From the sequence record OR062945.1: a stretch of 64,000 nt of DNA. The stretch is one strand, 5' to 3'. This DNA is from Escherichia phage 308Ecol101PP. Both the position numbers and the translations under genes were made by a program. Below, piece after piece: positions 36,579 to 49,640 of the stretch. The notes beneath the pieces were generated by a model. The model worked only from the letters and a program-made list of their open reading frames with translations, ran no database searches and had not been told where the DNA came from. The first letter of the stretch is position 1, and every line of letters starts with the position of its first letter.

Positions 36579-36866
36579 ATGAAAACCTATAAAGAATTTA
36601 TATCACCTGTTGCTAACGTTTCTACTCTGACCGAAGCAACCCTTACTTCCGAAGTTATTAAAGCAAATAAAGGACGTGAGGGTAAACCAATGATTAGTCT
36701 GGTTGACGGCGAAGAAGTAAAAGGTACTGTTTACTTAGGGGATGGATGGTCTGCTAAGAAAGATGGCGCTACTATTGTTATCTCTCCGGCTGAAGAGACT
36801 GCACTGTTTAAAGCTAAGCATATTTCTGTAGCTCAGCTTAAAATTATTGCAAAAACTCTTCTGTAA
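36579..36866 (+). CDS. internal-protein-like protein with capsid-targeting N-terminus
   Basis: 95 aa starting MKTYKEFI...; gp21-type L-x-E site at STLTE. Confidence 0.6.
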   Translation: MKTYKEFISPVANVSTLTEATLTSEVIKANKGREGKPMISLVDGEEVKGTVYLGDGWSAKKDGATIVISPAEETALFKAKHISVAQLKIIAKTLL

Positions 36867-38697: not shown

Positions 38698-38772
38698 GGC
38701 CCTGTAGCTCAATGGGAGAGCTGTCAGCTCATAACTGATAGGTAGCTGGATCGAAACCAGCCAGGGTCACCA
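38698..38772 (+). tRNA. tRNA with CAT anticodon (Met or lysidine-type Ile), encoded CCA
   Basis: Hand-folded cloverleaf: acceptor GGCCCTG/CAGGGTC, D stem GCTC/GAGC, anticodon stem GTCAG/CTGAT with loop CTCATAA, T stem GCTGG/CCAGC. Confidence 0.85.
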
Positions 38773-38775
38773 ATT

Positions 38776-38852
<77 letters not shown>

Positions 38853-41789: not shown

Positions 41790-41812
41790 GGAGGACTCCG
41801 GTCCTCCTTTTG
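41790..41812 (+). terminator. rho-independent terminator
   Basis: GGAGGAC-tccg-GTCCTCC followed by TTTT. Confidence 0.6.
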
Positions 41813-41830: not shown

Positions 41831-42427
41831 ATGCGAAACCAAAATAATGATATTGACTCAATGTTCGAAGAGTTCCGAGATAAGGTAAATCCACCTACGT
41901 CTTTAGTTGATTCATTACGATATGTTGCAACTGGACGTAAATGGTACTGGTCGTCTTCTTATGAGACAACTGAATATGCAAATAACCGAAAATCTTTATT
42001 AGCCCCAGGTATTATGATTCATGATATCGGAGCTATTGCTAAACTAGTTGCAGACCATGATATTAGATTCACTGATTTCATTGCTCCTACGTGGTCTGTT
42101 TGTTGTTTAAACACTGAATGGGACTACATCAGTGAACGTTCAGATGATTACGTAGGCTTTAGAGATAAGCTCTTAAGGTCTAACATGTTTTATATCGATA
42201 CAGAAGTTCTAGTCGATAATAAAAAATATTACTTTACGTTAATCGTCGATTCTGAAACTATGTATGAAGGCAAGCCTTTGCTTAAAAGAGTTGATGCTTT
42301 AAGTGCTATTGATGCGCTTTATGAAACTATGGTTGTTAGTCCTAATTTCACTAACAATTTAATCCTTGAGCAATTTATTATGGAATGTAGAGAATATGTC
42401 AAAGCCAACCCTATACATGCCAATTAA
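41831..42427 (+). CDS. hypothetical protein carrying FIMECRE junction motif near C-terminus
   Basis: 198 aa from ATG after AAGGAG RBS. Confidence 0.55.
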   Translation: MRNQNNDIDSMFEEFRDKVNPPTSLVDSLRYVATGRKWYWSSSYETTEYANNRKSLLAPGIMIHDIGAIAKLVADHDIRFTDFIAPTWSVCCLNTEWDYISERSDDYVGFRDKLLRSNMFYIDTEVLVDNKKYYFTLIVDSETMYEGKPLLKRVDALSAIDALYETMVVSPNFTNNLILEQFIMECREYVKANPIHAN

Positions 42428-42791
42428 GCCCTGGGCATACGAATACAAACGTAAATTAATTCCTAATGAAGTGTTGTTTGGTCCTATTTTAGCTTTAGCA
42501 TTTTTAATCTTTATGATTATAGGAGCTATTTTAGATTCCAATAAAGTTATATCGTCTGATGCAGCATTTTCATTAATGTTCGTCGCACCACTTATTGTAC
42601 CGTTTTTATTAATGCCTATTAATTGGGTAGGATATTGGCACCAAGGCCGTCATCACAGAGCCCGATTAAGAGAATGGAAAGTTCAGTGCGCAAAAGCCCA
42701 AGCTCAATATGATGAAGCTGTTAAAAAGTATGAATATGAAGAAGCTATGGAATTCGTTAAGGAAATAAGATGCAAAAGCCTCAACTCTTAA
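42396..42791 (+). CDS. small membrane protein with conserved C-terminal tail
   Basis: 131 aa, hydrophobic segments, ends EFVKEIRCKSLNS. Confidence 0.5.
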   Translation: MSKPTLYMPIKPWAYEYKRKLIPNEVLFGPILALAFLIFMIIGAILDSNKVISSDAAFSLMFVAPLIVPFLLMPINWVGYWHQGRHHRARLREWKVQCAKAQAQYDEAVKKYEYEEAMEFVKEIRCKSLNS

Positions 42792-43129
42792 CCGTATGGC
42801 CGTCTCTTGGTGAGAACATTCTAATTTTTATTATGAGTATTGGCATGGGATTTGCCTTTGGATTAGTTGGATTTCTTATTGACGGAGTTGTGTTAGGATT
42901 TATAGGGAATACAGGTGGATTCACAGACCAATGGCAGGACCTAAGATACACCCAAGCTTTTGCATCTATCGCATCATTTTGTACTGTAGTCTATTTTTAC
43001 TACGATTTTATAAACCATAACAAGAAAAATAAAAAGGTTTACGCTTCTCAAATGATTAGTTATAATGAACTCCTAGCTAGACGTGAAAATGAAACAATAG
43101 AAAACTTTATTAAGGAATGTAGAAAATGA
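42770..43129 (+). CDS. small membrane protein with conserved C-terminal tail
   Basis: 119 aa, ends ENFIKECRK. Confidence 0.55.
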   Translation: MQKPQLLTVWPSLGENILIFIMSIGMGFAFGLVGFLIDGVVLGFIGNTGGFTDQWQDLRYTQAFASIASFCTVVYFYYDFINHNKKNKKVYASQMISYNELLARRENETIENFIKECRK

Positions 43130-43431
43130 GTAAGATTATTGAAATTAAAGTACCAGAGTTTAATGATGCTAAATCCGCTTCAGATGCAATTTATAAACTT
43201 CTGAATCAAGCTGAACGTATCGAAGAAGAAGCAACAAAGATCGCGGACCAATATGCTGTATCATTTTCTGTAGGTGATTATGGTAGCGGTCGTACTTATT
43301 ATCCTAAGGGTGAAATTGTATCCCAGTGGATGAAAGATGAAATTGAAAATAATGGTGGTGATGTTAAACGTGAAGGTAATGGTTACGTTATTACTGAAGG
43401 TGCTTGGGTTTCGTCTTCTGCGATGTGCTAA
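43126..43431 (+). CDS. hypothetical protein, member 1 of tandem trio
   Basis: 101 aa, C-terminus GAWVSSSAMC. Confidence 0.55.
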   Translation: MSKIIEIKVPEFNDAKSASDAIYKLLNQAERIEEEATKIADQYAVSFSVGDYGSGRTYYPKGEIVSQWMKDEIENNGGDVKREGNGYVITEGAWVSSSAMC

Positions 43432-43440
43432 GGAATCATT

Positions 43441-43713
43441 ATGTCTAAAGAACAAACCGAACTGGCTGAAGCCGTAGCAAAAATCTATGCAGCTATTGAG
43501 GCTGCCAAAGAAATTGCTGATAAACAAAACACAACATTCAACTTGTATCCAGCTTATGGTATGGGTGGAACCTATCATTCACCCGGACAACTTAAAGCCG
43601 ATCTTGAACGTTGTACAAAAAACGGCTATGCCGAATGGGCTGACGTTTACCAATACGACTACAACCTGAGCCTCGAAACTGGTGGTTGGATTGCATCTTC
43701 TCACACTTGCTAA
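43441..43713 (+). CDS. hypothetical protein, member 2 of tandem trio
   Basis: 90 aa, C-terminus GGWIASSHTC. Confidence 0.55.
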   Translation: MSKEQTELAEAVAKIYAAIEAAKEIADKQNTTFNLYPAYGMGGTYHSPGQLKADLERCTKNGYAEWADVYQYDYNLSLETGGWIASSHTC

Positions 43714-43722
43714 GGAAACCAT

Positions 43723-43920
43723 ATGTCTCGTGAATTAGATTGTGCTGTACGTACGGCAGTAGCTGCTCTGGAAAACCTGTTCCAAATTGCAACAGAAGAA
43801 CGCGAAGAAGTTACATTGTGGATTGAAGATAACGCAGGTCTGAATCTCCAGGACGCGATCTCATTATCCAATAATAGCATTACTGTTCAAGGCTGGGTAT
43901 CATCTAGTTATTCTTGCTAA
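43723..43920 (+). CDS. hypothetical protein, member 3 of tandem trio
   Basis: 65 aa, C-terminus QGWVSSSYSC. Confidence 0.55.
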   Translation: MSRELDCAVRTAVAALENLFQIATEEREEVTLWIEDNAGLNLQDAISLSNNSITVQGWVSSSYSC

Positions 43921-43924
43921 AACA

Positions 43925-43962
43925 GTTTACAACAAGATAGGGCTATGTTATAGTAGTCCTAT
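43925..43962 (+). promoter_or_regulatory. early promoter with stem-loop (PeSL-type)
   Basis: GTTTACA, TGTTATAGT, ATAGGGCTA/TAGTCCTAT. Confidence 0.5.
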
Positions 43963-43982
43963 CAAATTAAATGGAGTCCACA

Positions 43983-44222
43983 ATGATTTATTACGAAAGT
44001 ATCGGAACCAAAGTGGTTGGTAAAACCATTACTCGCGAAAAGTTTGCAAAGATATTCGATATGCGTTATAAAAAATCTGAACACAAAGGCATCCGATTCG
44101 AAGATGCGCACTGTACAATTTGTCCTTATAATGAAGACATAAACGGTACAATCGTTCCATTGGTAGAGGCTTCACATGATGACCTCTGGGATGAATATAA
44201 TATCGCATGTCGTGAAATTTAA
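43983..44222 (+). CDS. hypothetical protein
   Basis: 79 aa from ATG after TGGAG RBS. Confidence 0.5.
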   Translation: MIYYESIGTKVVGKTITREKFAKIFDMRYKKSEHKGIRFEDAHCTICPYNEDINGTIVPLVEASHDDLWDEYNIACREI

Positions 44223-44246
44223 GTTAATTAATCCGAGGAAAATATT

Positions 44247-45203
44247 ATGATGTTAGTTATTGGTTCTCGTGCACTTCACTATCATGGTCTTATTGATTCT
44301 AACGCTATCAAAAATAGTGATTGGGACTTTATTGCAGACCAAGGTTCTTGGAATGCATTCAAAAATCAAATGATGGGTGTATATGTTCATCAAGATAACC
44401 CTGATGTCCAAGTTTTCAAATGCTTCCATAATGGACGCGAAACTCATTTTGAAGCATATATTGTTCCGGCAATCACTAATGTCCGTGAATTAGTCGGTGA
44501 ACTCACTCCTGAAGATTTCACGTCTTCTTATGACCTTTTAAAATACGCCAAGAAAAATTTGACTAAAGACCGTTTGAACGGGTTTTACTGGGCAACTCCT
44601 GAGATATGTCTTGCAATTAAGATGTCTCATCGTTTCAAGAAAAATAATCCATTCTTTTTAAAGACTATGAACCATATTCAGTATCTTCGTGGTAAAGGTG
44701 TTACACTGAACGATGAACTTACTGAAATTATGCTGAAACGCCAGAAAGAAACCTTGAACTATGCTCACCCGATTCTTGACACTTCTAAAAGTGCGTTCTT
44801 TAAAGATGACATCTATACATATGACCATGATACTATTCATGAAGCCATTGCACTAACAGACCGTCCGGCTTATACGTTTTATATGAAAGACGGTTCTGAA
44901 GTAATGACCTCACGCGAGAAGTTTGAATCACTTCCGGAAATGGTCAAATTGGCCGGTGTATATGAAGAAACATGTGTACTAGCGTTAGAACGTTCTCAGA
45001 TTCCTAATGGCTTTGAAATCCATCCTCGTGATAGTTTTATGATGGCATTAGAAAAGGTCTGTACTTCAATCACATCAGGCTGGTTCCGTGAGTATGCCTG
45101 GGAGAACTATGGCAAAGTAGTAAGTATGTATCAAAGCTTAGGACACGACGATTACGTCAAGCGTTTCAAACAAAATTTTCATATGGTAAAACCTTTCAAA
45201 TAA
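44247..45203 (+). CDS. hypothetical protein with possible nucleotidyltransferase-fold signature
   Basis: 318 aa; VIGSRALHYHGLIDSNAIKNSDWDF resembles G-S ... D-x-D. Confidence 0.4.
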   Translation: MMLVIGSRALHYHGLIDSNAIKNSDWDFIADQGSWNAFKNQMMGVYVHQDNPDVQVFKCFHNGRETHFEAYIVPAITNVRELVGELTPEDFTSSYDLLKYAKKNLTKDRLNGFYWATPEICLAIKMSHRFKKNNPFFLKTMNHIQYLRGKGVTLNDELTEIMLKRQKETLNYAHPILDTSKSAFFKDDIYTYDHDTIHEAIALTDRPAYTFYMKDGSEVMTSREKFESLPEMVKLAGVYEETCVLALERSQIPNGFEIHPRDSFMMALEKVCTSITSGWFREYAWENYGKVVSMYQSLGHDDYVKRFKQNFHMVKPFK

Positions 45204-49310: not shown

Positions 49311-49640
49311 ATGAAAACGTATCAAGAGTTTATCACTGAAGTTACATTATCTGCGGAACAGAAAGCTGCTATCGAAGAAGGTAAAAATCCCAAAGTAACA
49401 TATAAAGTAAATGGTAAAGGCGTTTTTGATGGCTTGGTTCAAGACCCTGAATTGAAAAAAGCTCTTTCTAAAACTAATGCGTACTTTGCTCCTAAATTTA
49501 ACGCAGCCGGTGTACTTATTGGATTGGATGTATTCAACTCTAAAGGTGTTCTATCTAATGCCTTTGGTTATGCCGCTAACAAAATTACCAAAGCCGAATG
49601 GGAATCCAATACCAAACAAGCTCAAAAGCCTAGAGTATAA
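49311..49640 (+). CDS. internal-protein-like protein with capsid-targeting N-terminus
   Basis: 109 aa starting MKTYQEFITE. Confidence 0.6.
   Translation: MKTYQEFITEVTLSAEQKAAIEEGKNPKVTYKVNGKGVFDGLVQDPELKKALSKTNAYFAPKFNAAGVLIGLDVFNSKGVLSNAFGYAANKITKAEWESNTKQAQKPRV

Follow-up and report, generated by a model that had tools for sequence, protein, structure and literature searches.

In MntA-HepT, GlnD-PII and GlnE-GS, a nucleotidyltransferase-fold enzyme nucleotidylylates an adjacent or dedicated protein on a hydroxyl side chain, and in MenT/MenA and AbiEii/AbiEi (DUF1814) a small upstream gene is followed by a gene for a bilobed nucleotidyltransferase-like protein. RlaP (PF10127; T4 NrdC.11) extends damaged RNA 3′ ends by one or two nucleotides; its N-terminal nucleotidyltransferase domain is fused to a helical C-terminal domain that has a conserved cleft, and it is widespread in phages, T4-like and jumbo phages among them (PMC12776372, PMC7824862). 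Here we describe a locus in a stretch of 64,000 nucleotides from Escherichia phage 308Ecol101PP (sequence record OR062945.1), which is called the window below and belongs to a Mosigvirus, an RB69-like T4-type phage with 98.9% identity to phage ST0. Three consecutive small open reading frames (ORFs) of the window, ORF1, ORF2 and ORF3, end with the same C-terminal motif, referred to as the tail, and a larger gene downstream of this trio encodes a protein of 318 amino acids (aa), referred to as the partner enzyme. Their positions in the window are as follows.

43126..43431, + strand: ORF1, 101 aa, main family, GDYGSGRTYYP subtype, ending GAWVSSSAMC (ORF translation; match to phrog_899)
43405..43428, + strand: tail of ORF1, W-V-S-S-S-A-M-C (pattern search)
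43441..43713, + strand: ORF2, 90 aa, main family, YGMGGTY subtype, ending GGWIASSHTC (ORF translation; AlphaFold2 model)
43687..43710, + strand: tail of ORF2, W-I-A-S-S-H-T-C (pattern search)
43723..43920, + strand: ORF3, 65 aa, separate body type (phrog_4882, RB69ORF136c-like), ending QGWVSSSYSC (ORF translation)
43894..43917, + strand: tail of ORF3, W-V-S-S-S-Y-S-C (pattern search; profile-profile comparison)
44247..45203, + strand: partner enzyme, 318 aa, DUF7277 (N-terminal) and DUF7275 (Pfam scan)

The pattern W[VILM][SA]SS..C-stop, as well as a looser version of it, had exactly three matches in the six-frame translation of the window, and all of them were the ends of ORF1-3. The three consecutive ORFs, with the lengths and endings that the first-pass annotation of this DNA had given, were thus confirmed. 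The unit extends past the region 43126-43920 considered at that stage and includes the enzyme gene at 44247-45203.

The linkage between the tail and the enzyme was first seen in a 370-kb jumbo-phage contig, where two tandem members of the small-protein family are followed by a DUF7275 protein. When the small protein was used as the bait, with 43 viral loci fetched by its YGMGGTY pattern alone, a homolog of the 318-aa protein was found immediately downstream on the same strand in 41 of the 43 loci, and in the remaining two the contigs end just past the small genes. One jumbo-phage locus (L006/L007), which is separate from these 43, had no enzyme homolog within 6 kb. When the enzyme was used as the bait, one to six tail-bearing ORFs were detected just upstream in 72 of 80 viral loci, and in three of the other eight the ORF just upstream carried a shorter tail, W-x-S-S-x-C. 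The strict tail was present on 132 of the 1,660 upstream ORFs on the plus strand vs 4 of the 9,671 other ORFs, and these four, too, precede the enzyme, their loci being ones in which the coordinates are shifted. When the enzymes were grouped into 24 clades (60% identity), no neighbour apart from the small-protein family proved broadly conserved. The module spans T4-like, jumbo and 40-120 kb phages without any other common neighbour, and the window has the same arrangement, with the DUF7277 and DUF7275 gene on the same strand and no more than ~3 kb downstream. Bacterial genomes (one genome each for 185,579 species) gave only seven matches, all of them on metagenome-assembled contigs, which are presumably phage contigs binned with bacterial genomes. 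The module is essentially phage-only.

In Klebsiella phage Marfa (L014 9702-12582), five tail-bearing ORFs stand ahead of the enzyme; an overlapping ORF there ends ...RIWHPSSC and another ends ...FWYSSSMQNC, so the Trp, the Ser pair and the Cys are not spaced uniformly. The metagenomic phage contigs L133/L048 (413-3421) and L136 have six tail-bearing genes, with five ahead of the enzyme and the sixth behind it, and their tails are degenerate, such as W-E-G-S-A-C and W-Q-P-S-A-G-T-C.

After the tails were removed, 180 distinct tail-bearing ORFs fell into 13 BLAST clusters, with 147 ORFs of the main type, 16 of the ORF3 type and the others ranging from 46 to 207 aa, and therefore the tail is modular. 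As far as sequence comparison can tell, it is carried by several body types without detectable similarity, ORF3 included. In the window, ORF1 and ORF2 matched phrog_899 (2e-23 and 2.7e-18, respectively), and ORF3 matched phrog_4882 (1.1e-36). A family profile that contained only distant members, and from which the sequences of the window were left out, recognized ORF1 with E=1.6e-23 and ORF2 with E=4.7e-21. When the last ~10 residues were cut from both the profile and the targets, the two proteins still matched the family body (E=1.8e-20 for ORF1 and E=2.9e-17 for ORF2), and the pairwise score of tail-less ORF1 and ORF2, which are ~25-30% identical, exceeded that of shuffled sequences (p=0.0005). 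ORF1 and ORF2 are, by these comparisons, true whole-length paralogs. Tail-less ORF3, on the other hand, had no significant similarity to ORF1 (p=0.37) and a marginal one to ORF2 (p=0.027). Against the main-family profile, ORF3 gave E=0.033 with the tail and no match without it, and the profile of the ORF3 family, which has homologs in 251 phage records, could be aligned with the main family in no more than its last 14 columns (hhalign probability 84%, E=7e-6). The first-pass annotation had described the three N-terminal regions as different and had offered tandem duplication with diversification as one explanation. The former is right for ORF3 and wrong for ORF1 and ORF2, and duplication accounts for the ORF1/ORF2 pair; ORF3 shares the tail alone. 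In the same way, the absence of similarity beyond the last 10 residues, which that annotation had regarded as the outcome that would speak against it, was found for ORF3 and not for ORF1 and ORF2.

The order of an ORF1-type gene followed by an ORF2-type gene, often with more tail-bearing genes after them, recurs in T4-like contigs whose enzymes are 64-75% identical to that of the window, and therefore the duplication and the array are old rather than recent. Single copies are naturally broken in some phages: RB69ORF139c (P0002) is a 71-aa frameshifted version of ORF1 without the tail, and ORF2 of phage mar005P1 is truncated to 75 aa (P0020). These cases suggest redundancy among the array members.

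An exhaustive profile search for the main family, covering 1.84 billion representatives at the 50% clustering level with a threshold of E<=1e-3, returned 196 proteins, nearly all of which are 70-120 aa long and aligned through to the last residue. A second, word-indexed search returned 629 clusters, so that the search for homologs in other phages, which had been recommended along with structure prediction in the first-pass annotation, yielded at least 629 clusters with main-family proteins. None of the 629 clusters had a Pfam domain or an informative name. The N-terminus of the main family is an amphipathic helix (..EAE.IADE.G..F.F), followed by a hairpin, YGMGGTYYP (GDYGSGRTYYP in the ORF1 subtype), a variable and very acidic linker and finally G-x-W-x-[S/A/P]-S-S-x-x-C. 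The chain ends exactly with W-x-[SAP]-S-S-x-x-C in 146 of the 154 inspected members and has one extra residue in the other 8, and the Trp, both Ser residues (S(-4) and S(-3)) and the Cys (C(0)) are invariant among the inspected members. The family is acidic, with a median isoelectric point of 4.4 and a net charge of -8.5. Since the terminal Cys is the sole Cys in most members (126 of 233), its participation in an internal disulfide or a metal cluster was rejected.

The AlphaFold2 model of ORF2, which was based on an alignment of 119 sequences, was confident, with a predicted local distance difference test score (pLDDT) of 92.6 and a predicted template modeling score of 0.80. It consists of a helix (residues 3-29), a hairpin (32-46), two helices (48-60 and 66-74), a strand (81-85), a helical turn (86-89) and the terminal Cys. 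The Trp of the tail is located in the strand 81-85, which pairs with the hairpin, and S-S-H lies in the short helix 86-89, where the S-S-x-x stretch forms a helical cap. No meaningful match of the small proteins was found in Pfam, NCBIfam, PADLOC or PDB sequence searches; in PADLOC-DB there was only PDC-S49 for ORF1 (E=0.01, 12.5 bits) and nothing for the four other proteins scanned, including the enzyme. ORF1-3 are named only hypothetical across all public records, and a literature search that included RB69ORF139c found no paper on the small proteins in the library it covered. A likeness of the ORF2 N-terminus (MSKEQTELAE) to a capsid-targeting sequence was considered and rejected as too weak, and no late promoter motif was present in 42001-44300. 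The internal head protein homologs IpI and IpII of the window (36579-36866 and 49311-49640) start with MKTYKEFIS and MKTYQEFITE, and the resemblance of ORF2 to them is faint.

The partner enzyme matched DUF7275 at 4.8e-78 and DUF7277 at 1.2e-27, and tblastn found it in 733 phage records from many host genera. In 27 diverse homologs, G6, (S7), D25 and D27 of the N-terminal domain (DUF7277) are invariant, with a spacer of 11-17 residues. We take this G-S...D-x-D arrangement to be the Pol-beta nucleotidyltransferase signature hG[GS]-x(9-13)-Dh[DE]h, and a conserved E-x-E strand was visible after the D-x-D motif in the alignment of the 27 homologs. The C-terminal helical domain (DUF7275) contains ~25 invariant residues, most of which are charged, within the motifs KMSHR, KT, REKETY, YDHDxIHE, EE..LALER and KVCTSITSGWFRE. 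The names given by depositors are inconsistent, with nucleotidyltransferase in a few records and "biotin operon repressor" or "prohead assembly scaffold protein" elsewhere. A literature search on DUF7275, DUF7277, PF23940, PF23942 and nucleotidyltransferases with a C-terminal cysteine found nothing in the same library. From the conserved motifs, we infer that the enzyme may be an active nucleotidyltransferase.

We propose that these genes form a phage-specific two-component module, in which an array of small acidic early proteins would be paired with a Pol-beta-type nucleotidyltransferase-like enzyme of ~300 aa encoded just downstream, and in which the small proteins would engage the enzyme through the invariant W-x-[S/A]-S-S-x-x-Cys-COOH. 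The probability that the tail is an interface with the enzyme is, in our estimate, about 0.55. The tail may further serve as a substrate tag, on which the enzyme would place a nucleotidyl group, e.g., adenosine monophosphate (AMP), at an invariant Ser or at the terminal Cys. Such nucleotidylylation would switch or mature the small effectors, whose variable acidic bodies would have been diversified through duplication. We favour the substrate tag because the tail is kept to the end of the chain and is independent of the body, because it offers hydroxyl and thiol nucleophiles, and because the lone Cys excludes a disulfide or a metal cluster. That the tail is in fact covalently nucleotidylylated is a tentative part of the proposal, possible rather than probable. 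A shared C-terminal recognition or modification tag was the other explanation offered in the first-pass annotation, and comparative genomics, i.e., an invariant end on several bodies, confined to genes directly upstream of one enzyme family, now strongly favours a tag of this kind, with the modification itself being conjectural.

Several observations weigh against this proposal. The enzyme occurs without tail proteins in contig L077, where it is 65% identical, and in three near-identical loci (L101/L105/L125), and its distant homologs in Gordonia, Vibrio and roseobacter phages have no tail-bearing neighbours; hence, the enzyme probably has its own activity or another primary substrate. The assignment as a nucleotidyltransferase is at the level of motifs, because no curated nucleotidyltransferase Pfam family was matched by the 27 members (DUF6036 gave E=0.25 in one of the 27), profile searches of the PDB, with either the full-length enzyme or its N-terminal domain as the query, returned no credible match, and the single-sequence AlphaFold2 model of the enzyme was useless (pLDDT 39). 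The tail of ORF2 belongs to the fold in the confident model (tail-block pLDDT 82) and is no free peptide, and therefore a docking or structural role fits at least as well as a substrate role. Moreover, the trio and the enzyme gene are not obviously co-transcribed, because a hairpin and a promoter-like site lie between them.

A bolder version of the substrate tag would be a so far unrecognised post-translational system of phages, in which the enzyme reads the C-terminal tag and covalently attaches a nucleotide or an RNA 3′ end to it, or in which O-nucleotidylylation of a Ser is followed by elimination and by formation of a thioether ring with the Cys. We regard this version as doubtful. If true, it would establish protein tagging or lanthionine-like capping by a new class of enzyme, as a means of arming arrays of diversified small early effectors. 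In some distant phages (L003 689-3478 and 8647-12249; L055 265-1810) the module was observed near RNA repair genes, with Rnl1 and PNKP in one arrangement, Rnl2 and a metallophosphoesterase in the other, and DNA ligase in addition. This is a hint that the enzyme might act on RNA ends, with a linkage that is not general.

Two other explanations were kept alive because the tail is folded in the model and because enzymes exist without partners. In the first, the small proteins are inhibitors or resemble antitoxins, and neutralise or gate the enzyme by inserting the carboxylate and the thiol of the tail in its metal-dependent active site. Type II antitoxins similarly plug their toxins with C-terminal segments. 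We consider this explanation unlikely. The second, which we find less likely again, is that the small proteins are adaptors, with the tail docking on the enzyme and the variable bodies bringing host targets, such as defence proteins or RNAs, for nucleotidylylation. Arrays of one to six copies, in which many diversified bodies carry one constant tail, have the look of an arms-race adaptor set, the tail of ORF2 is folded rather than floppy, and the occurrence of the enzyme alone suggests a core activity of its own; the highly conserved YGMGGTYYP hairpin in the main-family body, however, argues for a conserved and not a target-specific function, and we know of no precedent for such an adaptor among Pol-beta nucleotidyltransferases.

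The tail could also be purely structural and its synteny with the enzyme coincidental, i.e., ordinary tandem duplication in a hyperplastic region would have produced the array, and the tail would simply close a small fold. Pairing of the Trp strand with the hairpin and the helical cap in the ORF2 model agree with this explanation, as do the whole-length paralogy of ORF1 and ORF2 and the dispensability of single copies (the frameshifted ORF1 in RB69 and the truncated ORF2 in mar005P1). However, the same ending is found on bodies without detectable similarity, ORF3 among them, the enzyme linkage holds over all 24 clades of the enzyme, whether the phages are T4-like, jumbo or of 40-120 kb, and a chain that ends exactly at the Cys is hard to account for by packing alone. 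We therefore consider a purely structural tail improbable.

The first-pass annotation had reported that each ORF is followed by TAAGGAA...ATG of the next one. This is correct for ORF1 and ORF2, each of which is followed by TAAGGAA-N5-6-ATG with the stop codon overlapping the Shine-Dalgarno sequence, and incorrect for ORF3, downstream of which TAAAACAG is succeeded by a promoter-like site and a strong hairpin, with no TAAGGAA...ATG. The tail Ser codons are unlike among the copies (TCG TCT TCT, GCA TCT TCT and TCA TCT AGT, where the second copy has Ala at the first position), and third codon positions hold 16 of the 21 differences from phage SA79RD, as expected of real genes; hence, conservation acts on the protein and not on the junction DNA. 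The idea that the ending merely reflects a conserved stop codon and Shine-Dalgarno sequence (TGC TAA GGA) between translationally coupled genes, to which the first two junctions (TGC-TAAGGAA-N5-6-ATG) lend some appearance, is refuted, since ORF3 has the tail without the junction, the Ser codons differ, and the tail is kept at the protein level in hundreds of proteins from unrelated phages with unrelated downstream DNA.

The trio belongs to the variable early region e.3/e.2, where it is flanked by the e.3 homolog and the e.2 region. The signals around it and the gene that separates it from the enzyme are as follows.

43038..43066, + strand: promoter-like site within e.3, TTTACG-17-TATAAT with GCTT upstream (consensus scan, 10/12 positions)
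43926-43954, + strand: promoter-like site for the next unit, overlapping the hairpin at 43936..43963 (promoter scan)
43936..43963, + strand: terminator-like hairpin with an 11-bp stem, 3′ of the trio (-16.1 kcal/mol, z=-3.45)
43971..44222, + strand: 83-aa ORF (phrog_3723, RB69ORF135c-like) between the trio and the enzyme gene, not conserved with the module outside close relatives

The site at 43038..43066 is a probable early or middle promoter serving the trio, and the equivalent site in phage SA79RD carries the annotation of a T4 middle-type promoter. A terminator is annotated in SA79RD at the place equivalent to the hairpin at 43936..43963. The 83-aa ORF has an H-C-x-x-C segment, and unrelated genes take its place in other phages. 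Genes for tRNA-Met (CAT) and tRNA-Arg (TCT) are located at 38698-38852, a few kb (~4.3 kb) upstream of the trio. At 41790-41807, after the e.6-like gene, there is a likely bidirectional intrinsic terminator, a GC-rich perfect hairpin of 7 bp with a T-run behind it (GGAGGACTCCGGTCCTCC TTTT). Two genes upstream of the trio, at about 42366-42791, lies the window homolog of an e.4-like membrane protein. The label "sulfurtransferase", which was found in phage JK36 only (L002 2718-3092), belongs to this membrane protein, and no support for it was found.

If the tail is a tag for the DUF7275 enzyme, the module would be a widespread, phage-only system of an enzyme and tagged proteins that is so far undescribed. 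Hundreds of sequenced phages carry it, T4-like and jumbo phages among them, with hosts that include Escherichia, Klebsiella, Acinetobacter, Aeromonas and Pseudomonas. Two Pfam DUFs and two "unknown" PHROG families would gain a role together, and the "hypothetical" early genes that recur as a block in therapeutic-type coliphages would be accounted for. The module could also reveal a new modification of C-terminal Cys or Ser in proteins, or a new way to regulate or redirect a nucleotidyltransferase in host takeover. With three small proteins and one enzyme in an easily grown E. coli phage, the proposal is directly testable.

No known system that we compared with this uncharacterized module matched it. 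Protein nucleotidylylation, the mechanism proposed here for the tail, is the one used by MntA-HepT, GlnD-PII and GlnE-GS. In those systems, however, an internal Tyr is modified instead of a Ser or Cys in a C-terminal motif, there are no arrays of diversified substrates, and the substrates have no sequence or fold relation to ORF1-3. The toxin systems MenT/MenA and AbiEii/AbiEi differ in that the partner is present here in multiple copies and the module is confined to lytic phage genomes. Pfam and PADLOC scans of the enzyme and the small proteins gave no match to DUF1814 or to an antitoxin family, and no significant fold similarity to YefM/Phd-type antitoxins was found.

The tandem small genes beside an enzyme are reminiscent of ribosomally synthesized and post-translationally modified peptides (RiPPs) such as lanthipeptides, and so are the invariant Ser and the C-terminal Cys with S-x-x-C spacing, as in the aminovinylcysteine (AviCys) ends of epidermin. 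The tail has the S-x-x-C-COOH ending of AviCys-type precursors, a feature that is necessary and far from sufficient for that assignment, and it is chemically conceivable that activation of a hydroxyl would lead to elimination and then to addition of the Cys. In contrast to leader-core peptides, the proteins studied here are 65-120 aa long and confidently folded, as in the ORF2 model, and their tail is constant and their body variable, whereas most RiPP families show the opposite. The Pfam scan of six genes (42770-45203) revealed no enzyme of the LanB/C/M/KC/L/D type and no other known RiPP enzyme. In PHROGs, phrog_899 and phrog_4882 are both listed as "unknown function" and treated as unrelated, with neither the shared tail nor the enzyme linkage recorded.

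RNA ligase and PNKP genes near some enzyme loci recall RlaP. None of the 27 enzyme members matched PF10127 even at E<=5, and no ligase family was conserved next to the enzyme when its 24 clades were compared. No small-protein partners have been reported for RlaP, and the comparison covers the enzyme and not the trio. Within that scope, its architecture and phage distribution make RlaP the nearest characterized analog of the partner enzyme.

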